From the NCBI GenBank assembly GCA_037444665.1, contig JBBILZ010000018.1, positions 1-43,453 of the forward strand: a stretch of 43,453 bases of DNA, read 5' to 3'. Every line of letters starts with the position of its first letter. Positions within the stretch are counted from its first letter, which is position 1. Of the stretch, positions 23,221 to 42,336 are shown one piece after another. This DNA comes from a candidate division WOR-3 bacterium (GTDB lineage: Bacteria > Hydrothermota > Tepidihabitantia > SM23-42 > JAOAFX01). Made by a program: the position numbers and the translations under genes. The notes under the pieces are model-generated. The model saw nothing but the letters and a program-made list of their open reading frames with translations, searched no databases and was not told the origin of the DNA.

Positions 23221-24263
23221 ATTAAGAATTTACTGACCAAATTAAACCACTGTTCATCAGTTAGACGCTCGTATATATTACTAACAATCTCACCACCATC
23301 AGCAATTGTTACACCTATCTGCTCATTAAATTCTTCATGGAGTCTATCAAATTCCTTTTCTAACCAATTTCTTGCGTTTTCACCCTTTTTAAATTCACTA
23401 ATCTCGCGTGGCGGCTTAATCTTGAAAAGCCAGCCCAGATTATAAGGGTCTTTTGTTATTACTGATGGCTGAGATTTTATGATTTCGTTTGTTTCCAAAA
23501 TTTCCATAGAGATTGGCGATTTTATTTTGACTACACGATTTTTACTGCCTATCTGCCAGCACTCTTCGCCTTTTTCAATCATTTGGTTGGCTGTGATTTT
23601 TATATTATCAATCTTTCCAATTATTTTTGTCGCAAAGTCATCAATACCAACTTTTACTGTTTCACCCTCAATCTTTAACCAAATATGGTTGGGTGTGTAG
23701 TAATAGTCTTCTCTGAAGGCGAATCCTTTTAATAGTTTTTCCTTTTTTAGTTCGCGCTCGCGTCTCCTTTTTAAATAAGGATTTGCCTCAATCATATCCT
23801 GAACATACTGGTCAACAGCACAATGCCAGCATTCATAATTATTAGAGCATAACTTATAAGTAAAATCTCCAGTTAGCATATATCTGCACTTGCGTTCATC
23901 TGCGGGCAATTGTTTTAATTTCTTTATGGCTTCAATCACCAATGGAGATTCAACATATGTGCCGCTGGCATCACTAATTGCCTGGTCAAACGCACAGTTC
24001 TTACAATCATAATCAGAAGTACAGACTCGGTAAGAAATAACCCCGGCCTTTGTCCAAATGCAAAGGTTTTCTTTATTTTCTGCCATTTTTCTCTCCTTTT
24101 TTTCTTTTTGCCCTTTGGCCAAAAAGTCTTTATAAATAGGGCAATCACTATAATTGACTTCACAAGGATTTTCTGCAACGAGTCTATCCTTGGGAAGCAT
24201 TTTTTTCACTGCACAAGCAGTGCAATATTGAACTAAAACTTCTTCCAAGAATGGGCATTTCAT
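23217..24263 (-). CDS. GcvH-like (lipoyl-domain fold) protein with three N-terminal Cys4 modules
   Basis: YYYTPNHIW, VGIDDFA, SPIS, DPYNLGWLFKI; N-terminal Cys clusters. Confidence 0.8.
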   Translation of the reverse strand: MKCPFLEEVLVQYCTACAVKKMLPKDRLVAENPCEVNYSDCPIYKDFLAKGQKEKKERKMAENKENLCIWTKAGVISYRVCTSDYDCKNCAFDQAISDASGTYVESPLVIEAIKKLKQLPADERKCRYMLTGDFTYKLCSNNYECWHCAVDQYVQDMIEANPYLKRRRERELKKEKLLKGFAFREDYYYTPNHIWLKIEGETVKVGIDDFATKIIGKIDNIKITANQMIEKGEECWQIGSKNRVVKIKSPISMEILETNEIIKSQPSVITKDPYNLGWLFKIKPPREISEFKKGENARNWLEKEFDRLHEEFNEQIGVTIADGGEIVSNIYERLTDEQWFNLVSKFLI

Positions 24264-24286
24264 TTTTACCTCTATTACTCCTATTA

Positions 24287-24302
24287 TGCAAAATCTGTGC
24301 CA
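24287..24302 (-). promoter_or_regulatory. sigma54 -24/-12 promoter of the GcvH-like gene
   Basis: TGGCAC-AGATT-TTGCA on the minus strand, 23 nt before the ATG. Confidence 0.85.
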
Positions 24303-24482
24303 GGATTATTTTGAAAAACAGCACTATTTTTCAATGGTTTTCTTAATTATATTGGTCAGATTGTGTTTAAAAAACAAACAACAATAAAATATTATGATTT
24401 TTTAAGCAGTTTTAGTGGTTATTTTATAAACACTTATTTTCTTTAAACATAGTTTGTGATTATGGGTAATTTATGTTGAGAG

Positions 24483-25835
24483 TTATGGTTTTTTCAAATC
24501 ATATTCTTTAATTTTTTTGTAAAGCGTTAATCTATTTATTTTCAAAATTTCAGCACACCGTTTTATGTTCCAGGCATTGGCATTGAGAATATTCAGAATG
24601 TGCTCTTTTTCTATGTCCTCAAGGGACATCGTGGATTTTAGCGAGGTTTGGATTAATGCTTTTCTTGCAATAGATGCAGGCAAATCTTCTATGGTAATTT
24701 CTTTAGTATTGCAGATGACCACACTATGTTCAATAACATTTTCTAGCTCCCTGACATTTCCTGGCCAGTCATATTCCATCAATAATTCCATTGCTTTTGT
24801 TGAGATCGTTTCTACTTGTTTTCCTGTTTCAAGCCGATATTTATCCAGGAAGTGCTCAATAATAATTGGCAGGTCCTGTTTACGTTTTCTTAAAGGTGGG
24901 AGCTCAATTGTTATGACATTTAGCCGATAATATAAATCATCTCTGAAAGTTCCATTCTTAACCATTTCTTCAAGATTTTTATTGGTTGCAGCAATTATTC
25001 GGATATCAACCTTTAATAATTCTTTACCACCGAGCCTTTTAAATTCTCTTTCTTGAATAAATCGCAGAAGGTCAACCTGGGTCTTTGGACTAATGTCTCC
25101 AATTTCATCAAGAAACAATGTTCCTTTATCTGCTATTTCAATACGTCCTTTGTACTGTGAAATTGCTCCAGTGAATGCACCCTTCTCATAGCCAAACAAC
25201 TCTGCTTCCAGCAGAGATTCAGGCATTGCTCCACAAGCTACCGGAATAAAGGGACCATTCTTTCTTGGACTCAATTCATGGATTGCCCGTGCAATAAGTT
25301 CCTTACCGGTGCCGCTCTCTCCTCTAATTAATATTGTGGATTTTGTAGGTGCGACTGTTTTAACCATTTCAAAAACCTTTAACATCTCTGGGCTTTTTCC
25401 GACCAGGTCCTGAAATTTAAATCTTTTGGTTAATTCTTTTCTTAATCTTATGTTCTCTTTAATCAATCGTTGATGTTCAATGAGTTTCTTTATTACAATG
25501 CTTATCTCTTCAGGATTAAACGGTTTTACTATATAGTCAGCCGCACCTTCTTTCATCGCTACAACTGCACTATCAATCGTAGCGTATGCCGTAATAATCA
25601 CTACCGGAATTTTAAAATTACTTTCATTAATTCTTTTTAATACCTCTATTCCATCAATTTCAGGCATTTTGAGGTCAACAATTGCTAAATCAAAATTTTC
25701 ACTTTTTAGTAGTTCTAATGCTTTATAACCATTTTCCACGGCAATAGCATCGTAACCATCTTCCTTGAGCCAATCAGAAAGCGAACATCGCATTATCTCT
25801 TCGTCATCAACAATCAGAATTTTACTCTTTATCAT
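24483..25835 (-). CDS. sigma54-dependent response regulator (NtrC/AtoC/ZraR family)
   Basis: REC domain (VDDE, DLKMP), GESGTGKE, GAFTGA, FLDEIG, WPGNVREL, Fis-type HTH. Confidence 0.94.
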   Translation of the reverse strand: MIKSKILIVDDEEIMRCSLSDWLKEDGYDAIAVENGYKALELLKSENFDLAIVDLKMPEIDGIEVLKRINESNFKIPVVIITAYATIDSAVVAMKEGAADYIVKPFNPEEISIVIKKLIEHQRLIKENIRLRKELTKRFKFQDLVGKSPEMLKVFEMVKTVAPTKSTILIRGESGTGKELIARAIHELSPRKNGPFIPVACGAMPESLLEAELFGYEKGAFTGAISQYKGRIEIADKGTLFLDEIGDISPKTQVDLLRFIQEREFKRLGGKELLKVDIRIIAATNKNLEEMVKNGTFRDDLYYRLNVITIELPPLRKRKQDLPIIIEHFLDKYRLETGKQVETISTKAMELLMEYDWPGNVRELENVIEHSVVICNTKEITIEDLPASIARKALIQTSLKSTMSLEDIEKEHILNILNANAWNIKRCAEILKINRLTLYKKIKEYDLKKP

Positions 25836-25844
25836 AGAGCCTCC

Positions 25845-26393
25845 TTAAGTTGATTGTAGAACTTGCTGTCTAAAAAATTCAGCACATTTTAAACAAAGAC
25901 TACATTTTTTATAATCCAGAGTGAAGATGCTGTCAGCCAAGAACATCGCACACCTCGGGTCATCGCAATGAACCAAGCCAAAGCAGTGTCCTAATTCATG
26001 TATCATGGTTTTTTTTAATCGTTCAGAAAGTAGTTCTTTATCATCAGGTAATTTGTAAAAATTTTGATTCAGGCGATGTATTGAAATAATTGCTACTCTA
26101 CCGTCAAGTTGGGCTTCGCCAAAAACATAAGTAAGTATAGGTGTGCATAAGTCAACATTTGTAATACCCACAAGCTTTAGCGCATCTTTCGGAAAATCAT
26201 CCATCAATGTCTGAAGAATTCTGTTGGCATAATACTGATTCCTAATCGGGTCAAATGCAGAAACTGGACACTCCAGGAATTTTCCTAATTTAAATGGTAG
26301 CAAAAATATTTTTTCCAATTCATTAAGAATACAAGTGATATTGTCAATCTTTTCTAACCCGACAGGACTTATGTAGATATATTGAAGTGCCAC
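25845..26393 (-). CDS. Archaemetzincin (peptidase M54)
   Basis: HELGHCFGLVHCDDPRCAM, CxxC (CLKC), YVFGEA. Confidence 0.88.
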   Translation of the reverse strand: MALQYIYISPVGLEKIDNITCILNELEKIFLLPFKLGKFLECPVSAFDPIRNQYYANRILQTLMDDFPKDALKLVGITNVDLCTPILTYVFGEAQLDGRVAIISIHRLNQNFYKLPDDKELLSERLKKTMIHELGHCFGLVHCDDPRCAMFLADSIFTLDYKKCSLCLKCAEFFRQQVLQST

Positions 26394-26398
26394 ATAAG

Positions 26399-26483
26399 AT
26401 TATATAAATACAATTCTGCTTGTCAATCACTTTTCTTAATAAGTAAATTTGACAATTGACAATTGAAATTAAATTGTTATAAT
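26399..26483. promoter_or_regulatory. Divergent sigma70 promoters for archaemetzincin-regulator and kinase genes
   Basis: Minus strand TTGACA(26426-26421)-N16-TATAAT(26404-26399); plus strand TTGACA(26456-26461)-N16-TATAAT(26478-26483). Confidence 0.72.
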
Positions 26484-26495
26484 AAAAAACAGTTT

Positions 26496-27608
26496 ATGAA
26501 TGAAAAGAAATTGATTGGTTTAGATTTTGAATTGATGAGGCCATTTCTTGAAAATCTTTTGAAGAATATGGAGGGTGGAGTATTTACAGTAGACCTCAAC
26601 AAGCAGATCACATCATTTAACAAGGCGGCAGAATGGATTACGGGTTATTGTTATGATGAAGTAATTGGTAGACCTTGTTATGAAGTATTAAAAAGTAGTT
26701 TATGTAATGAGTTCTGTATTTTTGATAAAACTATCAAAACAGGAATTCCCACAATGAAACACGATGTGATTATCACGGGAAAAGAAGGACAACAGATTTA
26801 TGTTTCATATTCAGCATTCAGTTTAACAGATGTTCATAAAAAAACAAGGGGTATAGGTGTTATTTTCCGTGATTTGACCGAATTAAAAAACCTTAGAGAA
26901 CAGTTGCTCCATTCGGAGAAACTGATTGTGATGGGGCAACTTGCCGCAGGTGTGGCGCACGAGATAAACAATCCAATAAACGGAATTATTAATTATATCC
27001 ACCTGTTTTTGAAACGGCTTGAAGAAAATCGTATTGCCCCTGAATCCTGGAAAAAAGATTTAAAGATGGTGGAAAGAGAGACAATGCGTATTGGTAGGCT
27101 GGTTAGAAATCTATTAAATTTTGCAAAAAAGACCGAACTTGAACTGAGAAAAATTCAGTTGGACCGTTTAATTGATGATACATTGCCACTTTTGGAGGAC
27201 CAATTTCTTTTAAAGAACATCCAGGTGAATAAAAAATATGAAAAACATATTCCTGAAATTTTTGGCGATTATAATCAACTCCAGCAAGTTATAATCAACC
27301 TGACCATAAATGCAGTTCAAGCAGTTAATAAAGGCGGCAAGATTGAAATAAGTTTGAATGCAGAGGGCCAAAAAGGTAGCGAATGTTTTGTTGTTCTTTC
27401 TATTGAAGATAATGGTGTGGGAATACCTGAGGCAGATTTGAATAAGGTCTTTGACCCATTCTATACTACAAAGACCAAAGAGAAGGGTGGAATCGGTCTT
27501 GGTTTGACCATAGTCAAGCAGATTATTGATGCCCACCATGGCCGCATCACAATTAAAAGTAAACCAGGTGAAGGTACTACTGTATCAGTCCGTTTCCCCA
27601 CGGTTTGA
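26496..27608 (+). CDS. Cytoplasmic PAS sensor histidine kinase
   Basis: PAS (FNKAAEWITGY), H-box AHEINNP, N-box, DNGVG, FDPFYTTK, GLGL; no TM helix. Confidence 0.92.
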   Translation: MNEKKLIGLDFELMRPFLENLLKNMEGGVFTVDLNKQITSFNKAAEWITGYCYDEVIGRPCYEVLKSSLCNEFCIFDKTIKTGIPTMKHDVIITGKEGQQIYVSYSAFSLTDVHKKTRGIGVIFRDLTELKNLREQLLHSEKLIVMGQLAAGVAHEINNPINGIINYIHLFLKRLEENRIAPESWKKDLKMVERETMRIGRLVRNLLNFAKKTELELRKIQLDRLIDDTLPLLEDQFLLKNIQVNKKYEKHIPEIFGDYNQLQQVIINLTINAVQAVNKGGKIEISLNAEGQKGSECFVVLSIEDNGVGIPEADLNKVFDPFYTTKTKEKGGIGLGLTIVKQIIDAHHGRITIKSKPGEGTTVSVRFPTV

Positions 27609-27856: not shown

Positions 27857-30800
27857 ATGAAAAAAATTGGAGTTTTTATCTGCCATTGTGGAATAAACAT
27901 TGCCAAAACTGTAGATGTTGAGGCATTGACTGAGGAGATAAAGAAGTATCCTGGAGTTGTTCATGCCGAGAACTACAAGTATATGTGCTCTGACCCCGGA
28001 CAGAATCTGATTGTAAAAGCAATAAAAGAAAAGAAACTTGATGCGGTTTTGGTTGCAGCATGCTCTCCAACCCTTCATGAACCAACATTTAGAAATACAA
28101 CAGAACGTGGTGGGCTCAACCGCTATGTATGCGAAATGGCAAATATTCGTGAACAATGTTCCTGGGTACATGAAGATAAGACTATTGCCACGCGCAAGGC
28201 AGGGGATATTATAAAGACAATGATTCAAAAAGTAAGATTCAATGAGGCATTAGAACCAATCCTGGTTGATGTGACGAAAAGGGCACTGGTGATTGGTGGA
28301 GGTATTGCAGGAATTCAGGCAGCACTGGATATTGCTAATGCTGGGATAGAGACGATTCTTGTTGAAAGGTCACCTTCAATCGGCGGTCGGATGGCACAAC
28401 TATCAGAGACATTCCCAACCCTTGATTGTTCCCAGTGTATCTTAACTCCCAAGATGGTGGAAGTTGTTCAGAATAAAAATATTAAACTGATGCCCTATTC
28501 AGAAGTAGAAGATGTAACCGGAACAGTGGGTAATTTTAAGGTTAAGATAAAACAGAAATCCACTTTTGTTGACTGGAACAAGTGTAATGGTTGCGGTGAT
28601 TGTGCTTTGGTCTGTCCGGTTTTGATTCCCAATGAATTTGAAGAGAATCTCACGACTCGCACTGCAATCTATCGTCCTTTTCCACAGGCAGTCCCCAATC
28701 GTTTTACCATCACCAAGAAAGGCCATCCTCCCTGTAGGTCTGCCTGCCCAGCCGGGGTTAATGCACAGGGTTATGTAGCCTTAATCCGTGCTGGAAAATA
28801 TAAAGAGGCATTAGCACTTGAGCGTGACGCAAATCCATTTGCAAGTGTTTGCGGTAGGGTATGTAATCATCCCTGTGAAACCGAATGTGTCCGTGGTGAA
28901 GTTGAGGATGCAATTTCAATTGCTTCCTTAAAGAGGTTCATAGCTGATTTTGGAGATTATCCATTAACCCAGCGAAAGCCGACCGGCGAGAAGATTGCTG
29001 TTGTAGGTTCGGGTCCGGCCGGACTTGCCTGTGCCTATTTCCTGGCAAGAAAGAATTATCAAGTAACAGTCTATGAAGCAGAAGATGTTATTGGTGGACT
29101 CTTATACTGGGGCATTCCTGCATTCCGCTTACCAAGAAATGAACTTAAAAAAGATATTGATTATATCAAATCATTCGGTGTAGAGTTCAAGACTGGAATA
29201 AAGGTTGGAAAGGATATTTCCCTTGAGCAGTTACAGAAAGGCAATCGCGCTGTCTTCCTCGGTACTGGTGCACCTGAAGAGCTAAAATTAAATATTGAAG
29301 GTGAAACACTTCAAGGTGTGCTCCATTGTGTAAGCTTCTTAAAAGAAATAAATTTAGGAAGAAAGATAACCTTGGGTAAAAAAGTTGTGGTCATTGGTGG
29401 TGGAAATGCTGCGATTGATTCGGCAAGGGTCGCTAAACGCCTGGGTAGCGATGTCACGATTCTTTATCGTAGGTCAATAAAAGAGATGCCAGCAAATCCT
29501 TGGGAGGTTGAAGAGGCATTAAAAGAAGGGGTTAAGATTGAATTCCTGGTGGCGCCAAACAAAATCTTGGGTAAGGAGAAGGTAGAACAGATTGAGTGTA
29601 TAAGAATGGAACTTGGTGCACCAGACGCAACAGGCAGGAGAAGGCCTGTAGCAATACCAGGAAGTGAATTTAATCTTACCATAGATAATGTTATCGTTGC
29701 CATTTCCCAAAAACCAGTTGTTGATTGGCTCGGCGATGAATATGAATTGACCAAATGGGGAACATTAAAAGTGGATTCAGAAACATTGATGACAAATGTT
29801 CCCGGAGTCTTTGCTGGCGGTGATTTGGTTTCTGGACCTGCAACTGTGATTGAGGCGGTGGCTGCCGGCAAAAAGGCTGCGGACAGTATAGATGCATTTT
29901 TAACCGGGGTAAAATTTGAGCATAAGAAATGGCCGGTTGCTCGCCCTGACCCTGAAAAATTAAAATCAATTCCGAAAAAGGCAAGGGCTCAGATGCCCAA
30001 AATAGCGCTTGATGAAAGAAATGGATTTAAAGAAGTTGAACTTGGCTTTGATGAAAAGACAGCAAAGGATGAAGCAAACCGATGTTTAAATTGTGCAATC
30101 TGTAGTGAGTGTCTTGAATGTGAGAGGGTTTGTGAACCAAAAGCCATCAATCATTTAATGGAAGATAAAATCGTTGAGTTTGATATAGGTGCAATTGTTG
30201 TGACCTCAGGCTATGATATCTATGAGCCTGAGCGATTGAAAGAGTATGGTTATGGCACAAGCCCGGATATCATTACATCGCTCCAATTTGAGAGATTGTT
30301 GTCTGCTTCAGGTCCTACTGCAGGAGAGGTAAAGAGACCTTCAGATGGTAAGGTGCCAAAGCGCGTAGTATTTATTCAGTGTGCTGGTTCAAGGGATAAA
30401 GAGAACCATCTTGAATACTGCTCCAAGATTTGCTGTATGTATACTGCAAAGCATGCAATTTTATACAAGCACCGTGTGCATGATGGTGAACCAATAATCT
30501 TTTATATTGATGTGAGAACACCGGGTAAGGGATTTGAAGAATTTTATAATCGGGCAACTGATGAAGGTGCCATCTATATCCGGGGTAAGGTTTCAAAGGT
30601 CTATCCAGAAAATGGGAAGATTATTGTTCTTGGTGCAGATACCCTGGTAGGCAAGAAGATTGAGGTTGAAGCAGATATGGTTGTGCTGGCAATGGGAATG
30701 GTTCCGACGCGCAATAACGAAGAATTCATTCGGAAATTAAAGATTCAATGCGATGCCAATGCATTTTTAACTGAGGCACATCCCAAGCTACGGCCCGTAG

Positions 30801-31168
30801 AGACGAATACACTCGGTATCTATATTGCGGGTGCAGCACACGGACCAAAAGATATTCCTGAGACTGTTGCTCAGGCATCTGGCGCAGCAAGCAAGGCAAT
30901 CGGAATTCTATCCCAGCCCAAGATTACATTTGAGCCATTAATTGCTACTGTTGATGAGAATCTCTGTTCAGGATGCAGTGTCTGTATTGGTGTTTGCCCA
31001 TTTGGTGCCAGGGAAAAAGATAAAGAAAAGAATATTGCAAAAGTCATTGATGCCCTTTGCCAGGGTTGTGGTGCGTGTTGTGCGGCATGTCCGAGTGGTG
31101 CATCACAATTGAAAAACCTCAGGGATAAGACCGTGCTTGAAATGGTGAGCGTTGCAATAAAAGATTGA
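27857..31168 (+). CDS. hdrA: Heterodisulfide reductase subunit A-like protein with inserted GltD/NfnB-type NAD(P)-binding module (HdrL-like)
   Basis: VFICHCG, ANIREQCSW, GGGIAG, TFPTLDCSQC; insert PCRSACP/VCGRVCNHPCE/GSGPAG/GGGNAA/GVFAGGD; FIQCAGSRD, YCSKICC; C-terminal ferredoxin. Confidence 0.9.
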   Translation: MKKIGVFICHCGINIAKTVDVEALTEEIKKYPGVVHAENYKYMCSDPGQNLIVKAIKEKKLDAVLVAACSPTLHEPTFRNTTERGGLNRYVCEMANIREQCSWVHEDKTIATRKAGDIIKTMIQKVRFNEALEPILVDVTKRALVIGGGIAGIQAALDIANAGIETILVERSPSIGGRMAQLSETFPTLDCSQCILTPKMVEVVQNKNIKLMPYSEVEDVTGTVGNFKVKIKQKSTFVDWNKCNGCGDCALVCPVLIPNEFEENLTTRTAIYRPFPQAVPNRFTITKKGHPPCRSACPAGVNAQGYVALIRAGKYKEALALERDANPFASVCGRVCNHPCETECVRGEVEDAISIASLKRFIADFGDYPLTQRKPTGEKIAVVGSGPAGLACAYFLARKNYQVTVYEAEDVIGGLLYWGIPAFRLPRNELKKDIDYIKSFGVEFKTGIKVGKDISLEQLQKGNRAVFLGTGAPEELKLNIEGETLQGVLHCVSFLKEINLGRKITLGKKVVVIGGGNAAIDSARVAKRLGSDVTILYRRSIKEMPANPWEVEEALKEGVKIEFLVAPNKILGKEKVEQIECIRMELGAPDATGRRRPVAIPGSEFNLTIDNVIVAISQKPVVDWLGDEYELTKWGTLKVDSETLMTNVPGVFAGGDLVSGPATVIEAVAAGKKAADSIDAFLTGVKFEHKKWPVARPDPEKLKSIPKKARAQMPKIALDERNGFKEVELGFDEKTAKDEANRCLNCAICSECLECERVCEPKAINHLMEDKIVEFDIGAIVVTSGYDIYEPERLKEYGYGTSPDIITSLQFERLLSASGPTAGEVKRPSDGKVPKRVVFIQCAGSRDKENHLEYCSKICCMYTAKHAILYKHRVHDGEPIIFYIDVRTPGKGFEEFYNRATDEGAIYIRGKVSKVYPENGKIIVLGADTLVGKKIEVEADMVVLAMGMVPTRNNEEFIRKLKIQCDANAFLTEAHPKLRPVETNTLGIYIAGAAHGPKDIPETVAQASGAASKAIGILSQPKITFEPLIATVDENLCSGCSVCIGVCPFGAREKDKEKNIAKVIDALCQGCGACCAACPSGASQLKNLRDKTVLEMVSVAIKD

Positions 31169-31470
31169 TTATTAAGTTCTGGCGCAAGCCACTTGATATA
31201 GATAAGATTAAGATCCCGATAGGCGAAATCCATATAATTAAGGACCGGTGTAAAGGTTGTGGTTTTTGCGTTGAATACTGTCCAAAAAAGGTCCTTGAGG
31301 TATCCAAGGAATTTAATTCCAAAGGCTATCATCCACCACTGGTTAGAAATCCTGATGCCTGTCGTGAATGCCATCTCTGCGAGATGCTTTGTCCTGAATT
31401 TGCCATCTATATTACATTAAAGGAAGAGAAACCAGTGAGTGATATCATTGACCAGTTAGAGATGAAATGA
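31165..31470 (+). CDS. 2x[4Fe-4S] ferredoxin, oxidoreductase delta subunit
   Basis: CKGCGFCVEYCP, NSKGYHPP, CRECHLCEMLCP. Confidence 0.88.
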   Translation: MIIKFWRKPLDIDKIKIPIGEIHIIKDRCKGCGFCVEYCPKKVLEVSKEFNSKGYHPPLVRNPDACRECHLCEMLCPEFAIYITLKEEKPVSDIIDQLEMK

Positions 31471-32681
31471 ATGAACCTGATAAAACTTTGTTAAGCGGAA
31501 AATATTTGTTGTCCGGTGCTGAGGCATGTGTTGAAGGTGCTTTTATTGCTGGATGCAGGTTTCTGGCAGGCTATCCGATAGTGCCGGCACTTAATATTTA
31601 TCATCATTATCTAAAAAGGGCAAAGGATTTAGGGGCAACATATATTCAGATGGAAGATGAGATTTCTGCCCTTGCGGCAGTGCTTGGTGCTTCCTGGAGC
31701 GGCAAAAAATCTATGACTGCTACTGCTGGACCCGGCTCTTCATTAATGATGGAACACTTTGGTTTGGGTGTAATGCTTGAAACTCCTTGTGTTATTGTGA
31801 ATGTGCAACATATTGGACCAGGCCCTGGTATGCCCACAGCGCCATTTCAAGGTGATGTAATGCAATCAAGATGGGGCTCACATGGTGATTATGAAACAAT
31901 TGTTCTTGCCCCTTCATCGGCTCAGGAGATGTTCAACTTTACAATCAAAGCGTTTAACTTTTCTGAACATTATCGTGTGCCAGTGGTGGTGCTTTCTGAT
32001 GCATACCTTGCCGATGAGAAGGAAGAGGTGATTGTCCCGGCATTAGAAAAGATTGAGATAGAACCAAGGCGATATTATGATGGGCCAAAGGAGAAATATC
32101 TTCCATATAAAAGAGAAGCCGACTTCGTTCCTTTAATGGTTGATACTGGTAAAGGTTATAAATTTCATGTCACAGGCCTTACACATGATGAGCGCGGTTA
32201 TCCAGTAATGAATGAAGAATGTCAGGAATTTAATGTTCATCCACTCGTCTGGAAGATTAGAAAAAATGCAGATAAGATAATTAATTTTACTGAGGTAAAA
32301 ACGGATGATGCAGATGTTATTGTCATTACTTATGGTCTTGGATACAGAACATGCCTCAGCGTAGTAGAACAGTTAAGAGCCGAAGGTATTAGGGTAGGTC
32401 TTTTAAAACTGAATGTGATCTGGCCATTTCCAGAAAAGCGAATATATGAAACAGCAAAAAAGGTAAAGGGTATTGTAGTGATGGAAATGAATTGCGGACA
32501 GGTTGTGTATGAGGTTGAACGAATAGCTGGAGGAGCTACAAATGTGCTATTTACCTTACAGAGTATTAATAAAGCAGACACAACCCGGAATTTAATTTCA
32601 GCAATAAATCATGCTTTAAAGATTAACGGAGTTAAAGACAAAATTATCGGATTAAATGATTTAATGAGTGCAGGAGATTAA
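31467..32681 (+). CDS. 2-oxoacid:ferredoxin oxidoreductase alpha subunit, divergent copy
   Basis: AGYPIVP, QMEDE, RWGSHGDY, GLTHDERG, WPFP. Confidence 0.88.
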   Translation: MNEPDKTLLSGKYLLSGAEACVEGAFIAGCRFLAGYPIVPALNIYHHYLKRAKDLGATYIQMEDEISALAAVLGASWSGKKSMTATAGPGSSLMMEHFGLGVMLETPCVIVNVQHIGPGPGMPTAPFQGDVMQSRWGSHGDYETIVLAPSSAQEMFNFTIKAFNFSEHYRVPVVVLSDAYLADEKEEVIVPALEKIEIEPRRYYDGPKEKYLPYKREADFVPLMVDTGKGYKFHVTGLTHDERGYPVMNEECQEFNVHPLVWKIRKNADKIINFTEVKTDDADVIVITYGLGYRTCLSVVEQLRAEGIRVGLLKLNVIWPFPEKRIYETAKKVKGIVVMEMNCGQVVYEVERIAGGATNVLFTLQSINKADTTRNLISAINHALKINGVKDKIIGLNDLMSAGD

Positions 32682-33525
32682 AATGGAGACATTGACGAAA
32701 ATACCTAAAGAGATACATCCAATGGAAAATTTGCTCCGGATGGAGCGGATCCCCCATATCTGGTGTCCGGGGTGCGGTATTGGCCTGGCAGTCACGGCAT
32801 TTGCTGCTGCAATTGATAAAGCAAAGATAGATTTGAATAAAGTGGTGGTTGTTTCAGGTATTGGATGTACAGGAAGGGTTGCGGGTTATATGAAACTTGA
32901 TTCATTCCATACCACACATGGTCGGGCGATTGCCTTTGCTACAGGTATCAAACTTGCTAATCCTGAATTAAAGGTTGTAGTAATTTCTGGTGATGGCGAT
33001 TTGATTGCCATTGGTGGTAATCATTTTATCCATGCCGCACGCCGTAATATTGATATGGTTGTAATCTGTGTAAATAATTTTATCTATGCAATGACCGGTG
33101 GCCAGGTTGCACCAACTACCCCATTAGGTGCTTATAGTACTACATCTCCGTACGGTTGTGTAGTAGAACCTTTCAATATTCCATATATTGCGGATTCCTC
33201 AGGTGCAGTATATGTTGCGCGCTGGACTGTGCTTGATGTGCGTCGCCTTACCAATTCCATTAATGAAGCATTGAATAAAAAAGGTTTTTCAGTAATAGAG
33301 GCAATCTCGCCCTGTGCCCAGTATTATTCAAGAACAAATCGGCTCGGTGAAGGCATAGATATGTTAAGATTCTATCATGATAATTCAGAAATCAGGCATG
33401 GTGAAGATACAAAGAATTTAGATATTGGTTTTCAGACAAAGATTATTGTGGGGAAATTTGTAGACCGTGAACGGCCGACTTATTTAGAAGTATACAATAA
33501 AAAACTTCAGGAAATGGAAGTTTAA
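32668..33525 (+). CDS. 2-oxoacid:ferredoxin oxidoreductase beta subunit (KorB-like, canonical motifs)
   Basis: WCPGCG, SGIGC, HTTHGR, GDGD, NN.IYAMTGGQ, SPC. Confidence 0.92.
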   Translation: MQEIKMETLTKIPKEIHPMENLLRMERIPHIWCPGCGIGLAVTAFAAAIDKAKIDLNKVVVVSGIGCTGRVAGYMKLDSFHTTHGRAIAFATGIKLANPELKVVVISGDGDLIAIGGNHFIHAARRNIDMVVICVNNFIYAMTGGQVAPTTPLGAYSTTSPYGCVVEPFNIPYIADSSGAVYVARWTVLDVRRLTNSINEALNKKGFSVIEAISPCAQYYSRTNRLGEGIDMLRFYHDNSEIRHGEDTKNLDIGFQTKIIVGKFVDRERPTYLEVYNKKLQEMEV

Positions 33526-33526
33526 A

Positions 33527-34777
33527 ATTAAGGCAAATCCTAATGATGTCTTCACTGGTAATTATTATATAGATGGTGATGTTGCCGCAGGTTATGGTGC
33601 GCTTGCTGCGGGCTGTAAATTTGTCGCAGGCTATCCAATAACACCATCAACCGAAGCATTTGAGGCAATGTGCCGGAGAGGTCCATATACTGGAGCAATC
33701 TTTATTCAGATGGAAGATGAACTTGCTTCTATCGCTGCAGTAATAGGTGCGCGCTGGGCAGGAGCCAGGTCAATGACCATTACTTCAGGCCCTGGTTATT
33801 CATTGATGATGGAAGCAATTGGTTATGGAGCAATGACTGAGACGCCTTTTGTGCTTCTGAATATTCAGCGCACTGGTCCATCTACTGGTGTTCCGACCAA
33901 GACTGGCCAGGCAGATATTATGCAATCGCGCTGGGGTTCACATGGTGATTATGAAATCATTGCAATCTCACCTGATTCTCCACAGGAACTATTTGATTAC
34001 ACAATAAAGGCATTTAATTTAGCAGAACGATATCGCTGTCCAGTAATGATAATGTCTGATGAATGTGTTGGTCATATGACCGAAAAGGTTGTTATTCCTG
34101 AAGCGGATAAGATTGAAATAGAATCACCGCGGATATATACTGGTCCAGCAGAAGAATACTTCCCATTCAAACCAAAATCAGACCTGGTGCCGGATATGGC
34201 AAAGGCAGGTGAGGGGTTGAGATTATACATTACCGGCCTCCTCCATGATGAACGTGGTTATCCAGTAACAAAAGAAGAATTTAAAACACAATATTTAAAA
34301 AGGCTGGTGGATAAGATCCGACTCAATAAAGATAAGATTATTGAAATAAGAGAAGAAGATACTGAAAACGCCGAAGTTGTAGTGGTCGCCTATGGTATAT
34401 CAGCACGGGTTGCAAATAAGGGAATTGAGATTGCAAAAAATCGGGGAATAAAAGTTGGTAGTATTCGTCTTATCACGGTCTGGCCATTTCCGGATGAAAG
34501 GATAAATGAGTTATCAAAGAAGGTGAAGGCATTCGTCGTTCCTGAAATTAATTATGGCCAGATTGTATATGAAGTGGCGCGTTGTGTACATGGCAGGTCA
34601 AATGTGATGCTTGTTCCACATGGAGGTGCGGGTGTTCATAATCCCGATGATATTGCAGATGCAATTGAATATGTGGTGAAACAGACAGCAATATATGAAG
34701 GTGTTATTGAATTCAAAACAACCCTTGAAAAGAAAATTTTTGAAAAAGTAATTAAAATGGTCGGGAGAGAAGAATGA
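33527..34777 (+). CDS. 2-oxoacid:ferredoxin oxidoreductase alpha subunit (KorA-like, canonical motifs), probable non-ATG start
   Basis: The frame of ORF 33668 extends 47 codons upstream (KANPNDVFTG...AGYPITPSTE) with no ATG/GTG/TTG; ATT at 33527 follows GGAAG; QRTGPSTG present. Confidence 0.85.
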   Translation: MKANPNDVFTGNYYIDGDVAAGYGALAAGCKFVAGYPITPSTEAFEAMCRRGPYTGAIFIQMEDELASIAAVIGARWAGARSMTITSGPGYSLMMEAIGYGAMTETPFVLLNIQRTGPSTGVPTKTGQADIMQSRWGSHGDYEIIAISPDSPQELFDYTIKAFNLAERYRCPVMIMSDECVGHMTEKVVIPEADKIEIESPRIYTGPAEEYFPFKPKSDLVPDMAKAGEGLRLYITGLLHDERGYPVTKEEFKTQYLKRLVDKIRLNKDKIIEIREEDTENAEVVVVAYGISARVANKGIEIAKNRGIKVGSIRLITVWPFPDERINELSKKVKAFVVPEINYGQIVYEVARCVHGRSNVMLVPHGGAGVHNPDDIADAIEYVVKQTAIYEGVIEFKTTLEKKIFEKVIKMVGREE

Positions 34778-35520
34778 ATCTTTTTATTGATATTCTTGAC
34801 CGGGCGATTGAAAAATCAGGAGTGCTTCGTAAAAATATTTCAGTCGTATCAGATATTCCATTTGCTCCTGCAACAACAAAAAATTTAGGGATAGATTTTT
34901 TTCATACAATGCGCGGTCGCACCATTGCCTTCGCAACAGGGATGAAATTGGCAAATCCCGGGCTTAAAGTTATGCCTGTTGTTGGTGACCTTATCACCAT
35001 TGGTGGAAACCATCTGGTTCATACTGCACGAAGGAATATGGATTTACTGGTTATCTGTATTAATAGTTTTGTCTATTCACGGATTGCGGGACAACCTGCC
35101 CCCAAATCAGCACTCCCATTTTCCCCTTATTCACCATTTGAAGAACCATTTAATATCCCGCATCTTGCCAATTCCTGTGGTGCAGTGTATACTGCACGAT
35201 GGACTGCACTCCATTCTGAACAATTGATAGATTCTATTGCCGAAGCAATGAACAAAAAGGGACTTTCTGTGATAGAAGTTCTCTTGCCCGGTCCCAATTT
35301 TTATAATGATATTGAAAAAATAAATGAAGAACTATTAAAATTTTACTTTGAAAATTGTATAATAAAAGAAAATCTTGAGCCGCGAAATGTTCCTATATTA
35401 CCCGAAGAGAAGATTATCGTGGGTAAGTTTACAGATAAACAGAGACCGACATTCCTTGAAAGATATAATAATCAGTTGAGTAAAGCACTGGGTGAAAAAT
35501 TCAAGCCTTATGGAGTCTAA
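34774..35520 (+). CDS. 2-oxoacid:ferredoxin oxidoreductase beta-like subunit with degenerate cofactor motifs
   Basis: FHTMRGRTIAFATGMKLANP, GGNHLVHTARRN, YTARWT; lacks CPGCG, SGIGC and GDG. Confidence 0.82.
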   Translation: MNLFIDILDRAIEKSGVLRKNISVVSDIPFAPATTKNLGIDFFHTMRGRTIAFATGMKLANPGLKVMPVVGDLITIGGNHLVHTARRNMDLLVICINSFVYSRIAGQPAPKSALPFSPYSPFEEPFNIPHLANSCGAVYTARWTALHSEQLIDSIAEAMNKKGLSVIEVLLPGPNFYNDIEKINEELLKFYFENCIIKENLEPRNVPILPEEKIIVGKFTDKQRPTFLERYNNQLSKALGEKFKPYGV

Positions 35521-35522
35521 TT

Positions 35523-36068
35523 ATGCCTGAAATAAGATTTGCTGGTTATGGGGGACAGGGTATTATTCGAGCTGGATTGATTGTCGGTAAGGCAGCTGCA
35601 CTCTATGACAATAAGCATGCCACAATGAACCAGGATTTTGGTCCTGAGGCAAGAGGTGGTGCCTGTAGTTCCCAATTGGTCATTTCTGATACCAGGGTTC
35701 TATATCCCTATGTTACAAAATCGGATTGTTTGATTGCTATGTCTCAGGAAGGATATAACAAATTTGAGGCTGAATTGAAAGATAATGGTATGTTACTTAT
35801 TGATAAAGATTTAGTTAACCCCAGAATGGTTCGGCAGGGCATTAAGATTTATCGCATTCCTGCTACCCGTTTTGCTGAAGAACTCCGCAGCAGAATCAGT
35901 GCCAATGTGGTGATGCTCGGATTCTTTACGGCAATAACAAAATTTGTGAGTGAAGATGCAATGAAAAAAGCCATTCCCACTCTGGTACCTGAAAAGGCTG
36001 TGGACACTAACTTAAAGGCATTCCAGCGAGGGTATGATTACGGACTCCAGGCATTAAATAATCAGTAA
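35523..36068 (+). CDS. 2-oxoacid:ferredoxin oxidoreductase gamma subunit (KorC-like)
   Basis: IRFAGYGGQG, FGPEARGG, ANVVMLG, NLKAF..G. Confidence 0.92.
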   Translation: MPEIRFAGYGGQGIIRAGLIVGKAAALYDNKHATMNQDFGPEARGGACSSQLVISDTRVLYPYVTKSDCLIAMSQEGYNKFEAELKDNGMLLIDKDLVNPRMVRQGIKIYRIPATRFAEELRSRISANVVMLGFFTAITKFVSEDAMKKAIPTLVPEKAVDTNLKAFQRGYDYGLQALNNQ

Positions 36069-36141: not shown

Positions 36142-39100
36142 ATGCAGAAAGGGGTTCTGGTTATCGGGGGTGGTATTGCAGGTATTCAGGCTGCCCTTGA
36201 CCTGGCAAATGCGCAATTCCGGGTATATCTTGTGGAAAAATGCCCGAACATTGGCGGAAGAATGGCTCAACTCCACAAGATATTTACCTCAATGGATTGC
36301 ACGGCTTGAATACTCGGTCCAAAGATGATGGATGTCGGTCGACATCCTAATATTACCCTGTATACGCTCTCTGAAGTAAGAGAAGTTAAAGGTGAGGCAG
36401 GGGATTTTTCGGTCAAAATTATAAAACACCCCAGATATGTAAATATTAATCAATGTACTGCTTGTGGTGACTGTGCCAAGGTCTGTCCGATGGTTGTCCC
36501 CAATGAGTTTGATTTAGGGCTTAAATCAAGAAAGGCGATATATACTCCTTATAACCAGGCAGTGCCTTCAGCTTATATCCGGGTAAAAGAAGAGTGCCTT
36601 GATAATGTACCGGAGCGGGCAAGAAAAATAATGAAGCGAATACAGGAAAAGAGAGAAAAAAAATATACCCCCTGGGAACTCATTGCCTGCGGTAAGTGTA
36701 TACAAGCCTATAAGGCAAAGTGTATAAATTTTGATGAGCCAGAGGAGATTATTGATTTAAATGTTGGCGCAATTGTTGTTGCAACAGGAGTAGCATACTA
36801 TGACCCCAGAGAGGCGAGTGAATATGGGTATACAAGGTTTGAAAATGTTGTGACCAGTTTTGAATTAGAGCGATTGCTGGATGCGGCAAGTCCTACCCGG
36901 GGAGAGTTGCTCACTTTTACAAATGTTCGCCAGCCGAGGCGGATTGCTTTTATCCAGTGCGTTGGCTCCCGTAATATGAAAGCAGATATTCCATTCTGCT
37001 CAAGAATCTGTTGTATGAATACAATCAAAGATACGCTGGTGATTAGAGAACACTATCCCGATACAGAAATAATGGTATTCTATATTGATATACGGGCATT
37101 TGGTAAGGGATTTGAAGAGTTTTATAGAAGGAGCCTTAATGCGGGAGTAAAATACATCAAAGGTAAACCATCAAAGATTATTGAAGATAAAAAAACTGGT
37201 GAATTACTCCTTGCCTATGAAGACCAGTTAAAAGGAGAAATCAAAAATCTGGTTGTTGATATGGTTGTTCTTTCATCAGCAATGGTGCCAAGTGAGGGAA
37301 CAAAAAATCTTTCGCAAATATTAGGTATTGAGCTGGATAAAGATGGTTTCTTTAAAGAGCAGGACCCGTGCAGTTACCCCCTGGAATCAACCAGACCTGG
37401 TATCTATGTATGTGGCTGTGCTACAGGAGCAAAAGATATTACAGATGCCATTGCTGAGGCAAGCGGTGTTGCAGCAAAAGCGGGTGTGCTGGTTAAAGAA
37501 AGTGTCGTTGAAGAAAAAAAAGAAGAGATTTTACCACTTGACCTCTCTGGTCCGCTTCGTGTTGGTGTCTTTGTTTGCCATTGCGGCACGAATATTAGTG
37601 CAGTTCTGGATATTAAACAGATTTGTGAATATGCAGCAAAATTAAAGGATGTTGTTTTTGTTGATAACTATCTATTTGCATGTGCCGAGAGTGTGCAGAA
37701 AAAGATTCAAGAGGCAATCTTGCAAAATAAATTGAATCGTATAGTTGTAGCAGCATGCACACCAAAGACACACGAAGGTGTTTTTCAGGAGACACTTTTA
37801 AAGATTGGATTTAATCCCTATTTATTTGATATGGCAAATATCAGGAATCAGTGTTCCTGGGTCCATCAGCACGACCCAGAAATGGCTACAGAAAAGGCAA
37901 AAGAGATTGTAAAAATGTCAGTGCAAAGGGTAAAGAGATTAGAACCCCTATCACCTAAAGCATTGAATGTAGGAAGGGAAGTGCTGGTTATTGGTGGCGG
38001 TGTTTCTGGCATCCAATGTGCGATTGACCTAACAAATCGTGGATTCAAGGTCTATTTGATTGAAAAAGAAAAGGAACTTGGTGGAAGGGTGCAAAGGTTG
38101 TCCAGTGTTTACCCAGCAGGTATGAGCGGCGCATCATTGATTGAGAAAAAGAAAAGAGAGTTAAACGATAAGGGTGTTGAGAGCTATACTGATGCAGATA
38201 TCAAGGATATCAAGGGATTTGTTGGAAATTTTGAAATAAAAGTTGCAACACGAGGAAAAGAACTGGATTTAAAAGTTGGCGCAATTGTGCTGGCGATCGG
38301 TGCGGACCTTTATAAACCACTGGATAAATTTGGCTACGGACAATTCTCCAATGTTCATACCAGTATGGAACTGGAGAATATGCTCATAGAAAATTCAGAA
38401 AATCTGCAAGGTCTGAAGAGTGTGGCATTTATCCAGTGTGTTGGTTCACGGGCAGAAATAGGTAATACCTGGTGTTCAAGGTATTGCTGTCAGTCTGCAA
38501 TAAAACAGGCAATATTGTTGCGCAAAAAAGGAATTGATGTTACAATCTTCCACCGTGGGATAAGAGTTTATTCAAAGGGTGCAGAGATGATGTATCGTCA
38601 GGCAAGGGATATGGGTGTATTATTTATTCCTTATTCAGAACTGGCAAAAGGTGAAATACCAGAAGTCATTGGTGCCAGAAAAGCAGAGAAGATTGAAATG
38701 TATCTTGATGTAATTGACAAAGAGATTGTTGTGCCGGTTGATGCGGTTATTCTGTCTGTAGGTATGGTGCCCAATGGAAACGAGACAATGAAATTATCAG
38801 ATTTATTAAAGGTGCCCAGGGGGAGCGATTTATTCTTCTTAGAAAGGCATTCAAAATTTGGTCCTGTGGAAACAACAGTTGAAGGTGTATTCCTTGCCGG
38901 CTGTTGTATGTTTCCAATGGATATTGGTGATTCCATTTCCCAGGCATCAGCAGTGGCCGCTAAAGTATCTTCATTATTATCCAGGGATACAATTGTTTTG
39001 CCGCCAATAACTTCCTCAGTGGACGAAATCTACTGTCGTGGTTGCGGACGCTGTGTGGATGTGTGTGAATTTCATGCAATCTCGCTTATTGAAAAAGAGC

Positions 39101-39243
39101 CTGAGCTTTTTATCGCCAGAGTGAACGAGGCATTATGCAAGGGCTGTGGTACTTGTGTTCCTGCCTGTCCAACTGGTGCAATTGATTTGCGGCATTTTAA
39201 ATCCGAACAGATAAGTGCCCAACTTGAGGCATTGCTTAAATGA
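36142..39243 (+). CDS. hdrA: Selenocysteine-containing double HdrA-like flavoprotein
   Basis: AGGAGG RBS and ATG 36142. ORFs 36094-36309 and 36325-39243 are in one frame across TGA 36307-36309 (DCTA-U-ILGPK versus DCSQCILTPK in the first HdrA). Two GGGxxG and two FIQCVGSR modules, internal VCHCG. Confidence 0.87.
36330..36347 (+). promoter_or_regulatory. Candidate bacterial SECIS hairpin
   Basis: GGATGTC-GGTC-GACATCC perfect 7-bp stem with G/U-containing loop, starting 21 nt after the UGA. Confidence 0.65.
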
Positions 39244-39680
39244 ATTTCGAACCAAAAATTGTTGCCTTTTGTTGCAACTGGTGCTCTTATCCGGCAGCAG
39301 ATGGTGCGGGTGTTGCCCGATTACAGTATCCACCAAATATCCGGATTGTGCGCGTGATGTGCGGTGGCAGGGTGACACCGGGAATGGTGTTAAAGGCATT
39401 TGAACTTGGTGCAGATGGTGTCATTGTTGCCACCTGCCATTTTGAAGATTGCCATTACATATTCGGAGCAAGAAAGGCTGCAGATGTCCATAAGATAACT
39501 GAAAAACTTGTAGAGATGCTTGGTATTGAATCAGCAAGACTAAAACTTGATTGGATCTCTTCTGCGGAGACGACAAAATTCGCAAAAGTTGCCACAGAAT
39601 TTACAGAAACCATTAGAAGACTCGGACCGAGTTCTATAAATAAGAAGAAAGATAGTATATCGGAGAAAGAAGATGGGTAA
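39240..39680 (+). CDS. mvhD: MvhD/FlpD [2Fe-2S] subunit
   Basis: AFCCNWCSYPAAD, RVMCGGRV, CHFEDCHY, WISSAE. Confidence 0.93.
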   Translation: MNFEPKIVAFCCNWCSYPAADGAGVARLQYPPNIRIVRVMCGGRVTPGMVLKAFELGADGVIVATCHFEDCHYIFGARKAADVHKITEKLVEMLGIESARLKLDWISSAETTKFAKVATEFTETIRRLGPSSINKKKDSISEKEDG

Positions 39681-40101
39681 ATACACCGAAACTGAAAATT
39701 CGAAAAACGAAATACGAAATTCGAAACAAATTCAAAGGCCCAAAATACAAAATTCAAAACGATACGATCTTGAAGAACGTACAATTAAGTTCGCCAGAAG
39801 AGTCAGAGATTTCGTAAAACAATTGCCTAAAACGCTTGCAAATACTGAAGATATTAAACAATTAGTAAAATCATCGGGTTCTGTTGGTGCAAATTATATT
39901 GAAGCTAATGAAGCATTAAGTAAAAAAGACTTCATAATGAGAATAAAAATTTGCCGGAAAGAATCCAAGGAGAGTCGATATTGGCTGAAACTTTTGTGCA
40001 CAAATAATAAATTTGAGTTAGAGAACGAAAGACTATCATTGATTGATGAAGCGACTGAACTTATGAATATCTTCGGTTCCATAGTAAGGCGGAGTGAGTA
40101 A
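39673..40101 (+). CDS. Four helix bundle protein (23S rRNA IVP/bAvd-like fold)
   Basis: YDLEERT..FA, QLVKSSGSVGANYIEANEALSKKDF, KESKESRYWL. Confidence 0.88.
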   Translation: MGKYTETENSKNEIRNSKQIQRPKIQNSKRYDLEERTIKFARRVRDFVKQLPKTLANTEDIKQLVKSSGSVGANYIEANEALSKKDFIMRIKICRKESKESRYWLKLLCTNNKFELENERLSLIDEATELMNIFGSIVRRSE

Positions 40102-40204
40102 TGTCAGAGTTAATTAGAATTTGTTTTGAATTTCAATATTCGGATTTGTTTCGGAATTCGAAATTCGGATTTGTTTCGGAATTCGAAATTCGGATTTCGA
40201 ATTT
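39696..40204. mobile_element. Four-helix-bundle cassette bounded by inverted heptamer-rich arms
   Basis: Left arm AAATTCGAAAAACGAAATACGAAATTCGAAACAAATTC...AAAATTCAAAAC (39696-39760) is an imperfect reverse complement of the right arm GTTTTGAATTTC...TTCGGATTTCGAATTT (40123-40204). Confidence 0.6.
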
Positions 40205-41362: not shown

Positions 41363-41416
41363 ATATGGAGATAAATTCGAAATTCGAAATCCGAAATCCG
41401 AAACAAAATCTAAATT

Positions 41417-41539
41417 GTAGCGCCCGATTTCCCCATTTTTCTTGTAGCGCCCGACTTCAGTCGGGCGATGATATCCGTCGTCCATCTAAAGATGGACGCT
41501 ACAATGGAATTAATTGTAGCGTCCGACTTCAGTCGGACG
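41417..41539. repeat. Left REP cluster (GTAG-type palindromes)
   Basis: GTAGCGCCCGACTTCAGTCGGGCG (41444), CGTCCATCTAAAGATGGACGCTAC (41479), GTAGCGTCCGACTTCAGTCGGACG (41516), plus a partial copy at 41417. Confidence 0.9.
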
Positions 41540-41550
41540 AAAAAACAAAA

Positions 41551-42020
41551 TTAACTGATTACAAAACCTTTGGCAGAAGCCATGCGCCTCGCCTGAGAGA
41601 AATAGACTACAAAAAATTAATATATCCAATCCATATTATCGTTGGAACGCACCAGCGGCAGCCGTTTTTCCTACAAAAAAGATTTTCAGAAGTTATAATA
41701 GAAGAAATAGAAAAATTTGATAAATACATCGTTGCCTGGTGTTTAATGCCTGATCATTTACATCTTTTATTTAATCCTGATGGTAAAGAAATAAATATAC
41801 TTAATATAATTAAGCTTATAAAGGAAGAACCTCCCGGAAAATCAATTATCTCTATGGCGTGCAAAAAATCTGGCAAGAAAGTTTCTATGACCATATCCTA
41901 AGAAAAGAAGAGAAAATTGAACAAGTCTCGTTATATATACTAAATAATCCGGTAAGAAAAGAAATTATAGACGATTGGCAAAAATATCCCTATTCATGGT
42001 CGAGGTACTATGAGAAGTAA
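41551..42020 (+). pseudogene. REP-associated tyrosine transposase (RAYT, Y1/HUH), frameshifted
   Basis: HAPRLREIDY...WCLMPDHLHLL...KLIK, then after a 1-bp loss near 41821 GRTSRKIN...WQESFYDHILR...YILNNPVR...YPYS. Start uncertain. Confidence 0.88.
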
Positions 42021-42051
42021 TCTATTCGACCCAATACCTTTTTATTTTTGT

Positions 42052-42297
42052 GATAACGCCCGACTCTCCTATTCTTATTGTAACGCCCGACTTCAGTCGG
42101 GCGATGAAATCTCTCGTCCATCTAAAGATGGACGCTACGGGGAAAATTTGTTTCATTCTTGCTGTAGTGTCCAGTTTCAACTGGACGGAGAAAAAAATGT
42201 TCGTCCATCTAAAGATGGACGCTACAAAAGAATAAATTGTAGCGCCCGACTTCAGTCGGGCGAAAAACCCTCCCGTGCATCTAAAGATGGAAGCTAC
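42052..42297. repeat. Right REP cluster, three inverted doublets
   Basis: Copies at 42080/42115, 42164/42202 and 42239/42274, plus a partial copy near 42052. Confidence 0.9.
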
Positions 42298-42336
42298 CAA
42301 GAAAAAATAAGGATAAACCTAAAATAGAGGGATTTT

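Follow-up and report, generated by a model that had tools for sequence, protein, structure and literature searches.

The forward strand of the 43,453-nucleotide stretch analysed here (the window), from a candidate division WOR-3 bacterium, carries an operon in the order delta-alpha1-beta1-alpha2-beta2-gamma. Judged by its sequence, it is a duplicated 2-oxoacid:ferredoxin oxidoreductase (OFOR) of the Kor/Oor type. The full catalytic set (the YPITP threonine, the substrate arginine, the glutamate that activates thiamine diphosphate (ThDP), GDG...N and four cysteines) is present only once, divided between alpha2 (33527..34777), in which the cis substrate residues are intact and the trans loop is drifting, and beta1 (32683..33525), an intact subunit for ThDP/Mg and the proximal [4Fe-4S] cluster. 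According to the alignments, alpha1 (31467..32681) has lost the cis substrate residues and retains the trans loop and the ThDP glutamate, and beta2 (34774..35520) is a cofactor-less pseudo-subunit with the domain VI fold. The six genes would thus encode one OFOR with an asymmetric alpha1-alpha2-beta1-beta2 core and a single active site. Residue conservation, interpreted by analogy with a solved enzyme, indicates that this assembly is probably obligate, with one thiamine site. A first-pass annotation had placed the unit at 31467..35520; its motifs do lie there, but the unit extends further, because one delta (31165..31470) and one gamma (35523..36068) lie outside.

The motifs quoted in that annotation are found at the places given for them: YPIVPALN and QHIGPGPG in alpha1, YPITPSTE and QRTGPSTG in alpha2, and CPGCG, SGIGC, GDGD, YAMTGGQ and SPC in beta1. 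Beta2 is without the N-terminal cysteine motif and reads VSDIP, VVGD, YSRIAGQ and LPGP. In the alignment, no alpha motif is missing from PDB chain 1YD7_A, a protein of Pyrococcus furiosus. The near-full-length copies that were aligned comprise 37 single-type, 48 alpha1, 49 alpha2, 49 beta1 and 53 beta2 sequences. The four cysteines, the GDG, the asparagine, the pocket arginine and the methionine are retained in 49/49 beta1. All four cluster cysteines and the G-D of GDG, by which a catalytic OFOR beta subunit is recognized, are absent from 53/53 beta2, as is the pocket arginine. Nevertheless the fold is retained: the beta2 model is confident (pLDDT 88.8) and its top structural matches are OFOR beta chains. 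Of the beta positions invariant in single-type enzymes, 39 are retained in beta1 only, 33 in both copies and 3 in beta2 only, with 12 intermediate. Of the corresponding alpha positions, 84 are retained in both copies, 17 in alpha2 only, 8 in alpha1 only and 4 in neither, with 21 intermediate. Among those retained in alpha1 only are H235, L239 and T240, which belong to the H-x-TGLTH loop.

The layout of the active site is taken from the Sulfolobus tokodaii enzyme (StOFOR), as described in the available part of Yan et al. 2016 (PMC5020499). There, one protomer contributes Thr256a, Arg344a, Thr349a, Lys49b and Leu123b, domain III contributes Ser41a, and the opposite protomer contributes Asp468a', the only trans residue named. 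The D468A exchange lowers the Vmax for pyruvate from 7.5 to 0.10 and abolishes the activity on 2-oxoglutarate. Transferred by alignment, the residues correspond to T40 (Thr256a), R116 (Arg344a), T121 (Thr349a), R70 (Lys49b), M142 (Leu123b) and L239 (Asp468a'). T40, the YPITP threonine, is present in 48/49 alpha2, one fragment having a gap, as against 1/48 alpha1, and T121, the threonine of the PST motif, in 49/49 as against 2/48. The substrate arginine R116 is found in 48/49 alpha2 and 30/48 alpha1; the window alpha1 has a histidine here and a valine at the YPITP threonine. R70 is retained in 49/49 beta1 and 0/53 beta2, M142 in 49/49 and 2/53. Alpha2 and beta1 thus hold on to all five cis residues, on which constraint is relaxed in alpha1 and beta2; the trans residue favours alpha1. 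L239 is present in 37/37 single-copy alphas and 48/48 alpha1 but in 28/49 alpha2, where it is arginine in 10; the loop residues H235 and T240 are present in 48/48 alpha1 and in only 2/49 and 7/49 alpha2, respectively. In the window, the alpha1 loop H-V-T-G-L-T-H is encoded at 32166..32186, with the leucine aligned to Asp468' at 32178-32180.

The same division is seen in the entropy of ten-position windows, which at 231-240 is 0.18 in alpha1 and 1.08 in alpha2 and at 121-130 is 1.27 and 0.24. In a second set of 75 metagenome loci, tallied by eye and not de-duplicated, the threonine is found in 0/11 alpha1 and H-x-TGLTH in 11/11, the histidine together with GLTH in 1/15 alpha2, and TGLTH in 44/44 single-copy alphas. 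On sequence grounds, then, a dimer with two equivalent sites is not what these genes appear to encode, as alpha1 and beta2 are without the motifs and the constraint on the alpha2 loop is gone.

In the usual dimer, each site would be built from one alpha subunit (Thr, Arg, Thr, Glu), its beta subunit (Mg-ThDP, [4Fe-4S], pocket Arg/Met) and the loop of the other alpha subunit. The sole arrangement that unites all retained parts has a first site made of alpha2, beta1 and the alpha1 loop and a second site made of alpha1, beta2 and the alpha2 loop. The live pair would then be alpha2-beta1, not the pairs encoded by neighbouring genes. The second site would bind neither ThDP nor a cluster, and alpha1 and beta2 would be maintained as the parts that complete the live site and brace it. 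Substrate would be decarboxylated at the lone ThDP, with gamma delivering coenzyme A. Electrons would exit through beta1 and delta, over three clusters if one delta is bound, to ferredoxin or to the adjacent Hdr-type proteins. By this analogy alpha1 is not merely dead, as its loop would supply part of the live site. The core of what had been proposed from the letters, a heteromer with a single active site, is supported by conservation, by the ratio of non-synonymous to synonymous substitutions (dN/dS), by the trees and by a division of cis and trans residues that agrees with the Sulfolobus structure. A purely dead half is not supported, because of the alpha1 loop, and the structural role suggested for that half is widened to a defined structural and catalytic-support role.

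Several observations weigh against this assignment. The ThDP-activating glutamate (StOFOR Glu294a) is retained in 48/48 alpha1, many alpha1 copies still carry the substrate arginine, and the Mg-binding asparagine is still present in 39/53 beta2. The earlier description of alpha1 as degenerate therefore holds only in part; of the features of a catalytic OFOR alpha, it lacks the YPITP threonine and, in the window, the arginine, and it keeps the ThDP glutamate and the trans-loop residue. The window alpha2 retains the trans leucine, with H235 and T240 gone, and its sequence would be compatible with an (alpha2-beta1)2 enzyme if this genome were taken alone. The map of cis and trans residues is drawn from a single paper and contains a single trans residue, and the enzyme described there has low sequence similarity. 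In one genome (G250; loci L104 and L117), the four genes are scattered over four contigs and an in-frame TAG interrupts beta2, which is possibly due to decay, rearrangement or an assembly error. As to the substrate, the genome of the window also has a second intact Kor-like operon (on C39) that shares the pocket arginine and the loop leucine. A prediction of the complex of alpha2, beta1 and alpha1 (domain I parts) with a beta2 partner scored 0.76, compared with 0.70 for the control, without contacts, and it is not used either way. The single-chain model of alpha2 does not resolve residues 116-140 and hence carries no cis/trans information.

Loss of the second site by neutral drift from a homodimer to a heteromer, as modelled in the accessible part of PMC11066126, is a reasonable default by analogy. 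Possible advantages are the saving of one ThDP and of one to three clusters, or docking on one side only. The apparently inactive half has also acquired residues of its own. D64, G76, R84, T114, F159 and G216 are newly invariant in beta2, and five residues are newly invariant in alpha1. The invariant histidine of the HGR motif has become an invariant arginine in 53/53 beta2, and invariant Asp, Thr and Gly have been gained around the empty pocket; the acidic EDE residues are retained in 48/48 alpha1. The new invariant residues show constraint beyond decay and fit either partner specificity or a switch role. That the half is a built-in switch, beyond a brace, is a tentative idea and somewhat unlikely. 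In one version, the beta2 Arg/Asp/Thr/Gly and the alpha1 EDE residues could fill the vacant ThDP site and lock the live site in the active state of an alternating-sites cycle; in another, they could make up an allosteric pocket that accepts a metabolite with a phosphate group. With such a switch, the enzyme would be a one-wire OFOR that carries half the cofactors and supplies a single bifurcating partner of the Hdr type.

As an alternative to the asymmetric enzyme, alpha2 and beta1 might form a normal symmetric enzyme, with alpha1 and beta2 as facultative regulators or decoys that exchange in and halve or tune its activity. The trans leucine kept by the window alpha2 and by 28/49 alpha2 is in agreement with this, and affinity purification with mass spectrometry in Thermococcus kodakarensis suggests both separate and mixed complexes of paralogous 2-oxoglutarate:ferredoxin oxidoreductases (OGOR), according to the part of PMC12016516 consulted. 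The alternative is improbable, however, since the leucine is lost in 21/49 alpha2 (10 to Arg) and kept in 37/37 single-copy alphas, and the genes are interleaved, coupled and in one order in 46/46 complete loci. In addition, the probable ATT start of alpha2 described below would be expected to cut the amount of alpha2 and not that of the supposed regulators.

In Thermococcales, gamma is common to the pyruvate (POR) and 2-oxoisovalerate (VOR) oxidoreductases. Two enzymes could share gamma and delta here, alpha1-beta1 being live with an altered substrate pocket and alpha2-beta2 being something else, as the adjacency of the genes and the retained glutamate of alpha1 would allow. Variants of YPITP can signal a new specificity, as does YPIRP in oxalate oxidoreductase (PMC5020499, accessible part). 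Yet nine different non-Thr letters occur at the T40 position of alpha1, a spread that fits lost constraint and not new specificity, and alpha2, with its invariant Thr, Arg and Thr, would be opposite a beta subunit that can bind neither ThDP nor a cluster. The two-enzyme explanation is thus highly improbable.

The four duplicated genes are all under purifying selection. The check proposed in the first-pass annotation gave a positive answer: the same motif losses recur in orthologous operons and all four genes have dN/dS below 1 (medians 0.06-0.14). The median values (Nei-Gojobori) are 0.132 for alpha1, 0.102 for alpha2, 0.057 for beta1 and 0.141 for beta2, over 52 usable pairs of the 1035 among 46 loci, which are not independent; single-type controls gave 0.107 and 0.116 (50 pairs). 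Neither chance nor sequencing error accounts for the losses: the whole stretch is also covered by contigs from two other studies, which differ by 249 and 370 substitutions and for which no indel is listed within beta2 or where beta1 and alpha2 meet. That the degenerate genes are decaying relics or errors, as the beta2 stop and scattered cassette in 1/38 genomes might suggest, is refuted by dN/dS maxima of 0.21 (alpha1) and 0.30 (beta2) over the 52 pairs, by frames that stay open at 43-55% minimum pairwise identity, by the new invariant beta2 residues and by the independent contigs.

The degenerate genes are coupled to their neighbours, as had been noted, by ATGA overlaps of the alpha1 start with the delta stop and of the beta2 start with the alpha2 stop. 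The conserved start of alpha2 lacks ATG, GTG or TTG: an ATT at 33527 stands where the methionine of MKANP is found in the orthologs, and likewise in the genome G008. This probable start (33527-33529) lies one base past the beta1 stop; the orthologs other than that of G008 use ATG, GTG or TTG. An ATT start may reduce the output of alpha2. A fusion or frameshift of beta1 and alpha2 at the junction was considered and rejected, as the genes of the orthologs are separate with their own starts and the independent contigs have no listed indel. Alpha2 also has a specific, conserved 30-residue C-terminal tail (34690-34777) with a near-invariant T-x-L-E and F, for which a strand and a helix are predicted. 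The idea that it is a recycled beta2 N-terminus was dropped because there is no profile match (probability 0.2%).

In the trees, the beta1 and beta2 clades have SH-aLRT supports of 98 and 100 and are joined with the beta of a single-type genome (G060) at 94; alpha1 and alpha2 are sisters (FastTree), with G060 next. This fits one old tandem alpha-beta duplication, the single origin resting on branch support. The single-pair operon of G060 (L111) is the closest relative of the two duplicated pairs, and its alpha already carries some of the C-terminal extension; its enzyme would be a good stand-in for the pre-duplication state. In the genus of the window, the slot between the HdrA genes is taken by the double form in 2 genomes and by the single form in 8. 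The flanking HdrA genes are 81-92% identical to those of the single-type mates, while alpha, beta and gamma are 61-70% identical. Delta falls with the single-type mates (0.86), gamma with the double-type genomes (0.88). With moderate support, this suggests that the cassette from alpha to gamma was swapped in place, and an in-place swap would mean that the double and single forms do the same job. Type-specific columns are few in gamma and delta (7 and 1).

In the own genome and 40 relatives, a beta2-type gene is found in 22/41. Among 272 genomes of the phylum, 37 have a beta2-type match (at least 320 bits, the next being 303) and 37 an alpha1-type match (at least 678, the next being 633), with cut-offs placed by eye at gaps in the scores; the motifs were checked in the aligned loci, which exclude G150 and the alpha genes of G250. 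The double form is present in 38 of the 272 genomes, in eight families, the relatives being named WOR-3, and both types occur together in 36 of the 38; in the other two (G039, G156), a contig ends inside alpha2. The other 71 of the 109 genomes with a beta match at E <= 1e-55 are single-type only, and at this threshold no double-type genome among the 272 has an additional single-type beta. The named homologues belong to WOR-3 or Ca. Stahlbacteria; several of them carry the annotation of an ordinary beta subunit of 2-oxoglutarate oxidoreductase. When species genomes were scanned with a pattern, 35 loci emerged, of which 17 were dropped as probable repeats of genomes already included. The remaining 18 are titled Cloacimonadota (5), KSB1, Armatimonadota, Gemmatimonadota, Eubacteriales and Thermoplasmata (1 each) and bacteria without a group name (8); lone small contigs among them could be misbinned. 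All 46 complete loci have the order alpha1-beta1-alpha2-beta2. Gamma is present in one copy in 52/56 double-type loci and never in two; delta is present in one copy in 38/56 and never in two, with none seen in 18. Immediately before the double-type operon in L084, L091 and L080 lies another delta-alpha-beta-gamma operon, which is intact and belongs to a distant Kor-like family.

Together, the genes encode the complete set of OFOR domains: I and II (alpha), VI (beta), III (gamma) and V (delta), according to Pfam and NCBIfam. Both alphas pass the cut-off of NCBIfam PRK08659, the Kor alpha family. The ThDP-binding C-terminal domain is matched by beta1 and, less strongly, by beta2. Gamma, the single-copy CoA-binding subunit, matches Pfam POR, and delta, a single-copy 2[4Fe-4S] ferredoxin-like protein, matches Pfam Fer4. 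The top NCBIfam match of delta, OGOR_delta, is under its cut-off, and the scores of beta1 and delta do not reach equivalog cut-offs. The solved chain nearest to beta1 is Helicobacter pylori OorB (8YS5_C, E 3e-62), the pocket arginine and the loop leucine match 2-oxoglutarate enzymes and the alphas pass a Kor-type profile. By these sequence criteria 2-oxoglutarate is the likely substrate, although the assignment is unsettled because the C39 operon carries the same residues.

The plus-strand row in the window runs HdrA-like, delta, alpha1, beta1, alpha2, beta2, gamma, HdrA-like, MvhD, HdrD-like and HdrC-like. The first HdrA-like gene (27857..31168), whose stop overlaps the delta start, encodes a flavoprotein with an NAD(P)-binding insert, and the same neighbour is found in the single-type operons of the genus. 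The second (36142..39243) encodes a double HdrA-like protein and is followed by the MvhD, HdrD-like and HdrC-like genes. It has an in-frame TGA at 36307, at a C-x-x-C position, probably for selenocysteine; a tRNA-Sec is present in the genome. Such HdrA sites in the loci covered have TGA in 20/47 and Cys in 27/47. The hairpin after the TGA is not significant alone (z -1.3). HdrA-like genes are found near 41/56 double-type and 25/37 single-type loci, the loci being unequal in length. Since Hdr neighbours are common to both types, the Hdr link is older than the asymmetry. Docking of HdrA by the dead half, which had been suggested earlier, is not specifically supported, as there is no enrichment and single-pair operons have the same Hdr neighbours. 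In L034, a TfrA-like (thiol:fumarate reductase-like) gene lies immediately before alpha1, a further hint of 2-oxoglutarate as the substrate.

Before the Hdr-Kor operon (23217-27608) are genes for a 348-residue protein with a GcvH-like part, a sigma-54 regulator, an archaemetzincin-like protein and a PAS histidine kinase; the kinase is upstream in single-type relatives as well. Between the mvhD and hdrD-like genes is an open reading frame for a four-helix bundle of the 23S rRNA IVP family (39673-40204); on either side of it are AT-rich inverted repeats, which are found again at 41371-41416. A Y1 transposase-like open reading frame (41365-42327) is inserted between the hdrD-like and hdrC-like genes. 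Its flanks carry palindromic repeats, with units of about 85 bases that resemble repetitive extragenic palindromic (REP) elements.

The trypanosome AdoMetDC-prozyme is reportedly a heteromer of an enzyme and its pseudoenzyme paralogue. In such heteromers, as in the model described in the available part of PMC11066126, the duplication of an enzyme that interacts with itself has likewise left a dead paralogue that is kept as an obligate partner. Those cases involve other folds, whereas here both subunits of a protomer with cofactor and cluster would be split reciprocally. H. pylori OorDABC (8YS5/8YS6), compared by PDB title and sequence, has the same four subunit types and the pocket arginine and loop leucine in common, but one alpha and one beta gene instead of two each with reciprocal losses. 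StOFOR1/2 (5B46-5B48) share the layout of the active site, including the residue from the other protomer. The sites of StOFOR are 16.5 Å apart with possible alternating-sites communication, and the StOFOR1 crystal has cofactors in one protomer only, with oxidative damage suspected by the authors as the reason for disorder (PMC5020499, available part). Those protomers are products of the same genes, whereas the asymmetry here would be genetically fixed. The nearest precedent is the T. kodakarensis OGOR (TK1123-1126, TK1129-1131), which likewise has two alpha, two beta and one delta. It has two gamma genes, and the accessible part of PMC12016516 describes no dead subunit and leaves room for separate tetramers; two gamma genes were never found in the 56 double-type loci. 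In Ca. Endoriftia persephone, Kor is likewise placed among Hdr genes (KorABCD-Hdr-Flx-TfrAB), the TfrA-like gene of L034 being a parallel; this Kor is a single four-subunit enzyme, and duplication is not mentioned in the part of PMC11636981 consulted. A 2026 review of pyruvate:ferredoxin oxidoreductases describes a core that dimerizes from identical protomers with two equivalent sites, and the word asymmetric is absent from the text available (PMC13768988). A survey of WOR-3 genomes lists korABCD only, in its available part (PMC12542636). No OFOR with a dead subunit was found in the literature searched by titles and the starts of abstracts, a search mostly outside subscription journals; supplementary tables of WOR-3 and Cloacimonadota papers could hold a mention. 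Dead paralogue partners are familiar in other enzymes, and the OFOR pseudo-subunit appears to be a new variant.

The enzyme would be a natural one-site OFOR whose two-site ancestor occupies the same slot in close relatives, so that the need for a second site and its cost could be tested. It would also be a clean case of a homodimer that became an obligate heteromer, in which the cis and trans duties are divided between paralogues and can be read residue by residue. Because beta2 is automatically annotated as a normal Kor beta, gene counts overstate the number of these enzymes, and a single alpha-beta pair expressed from such a genome should not work.

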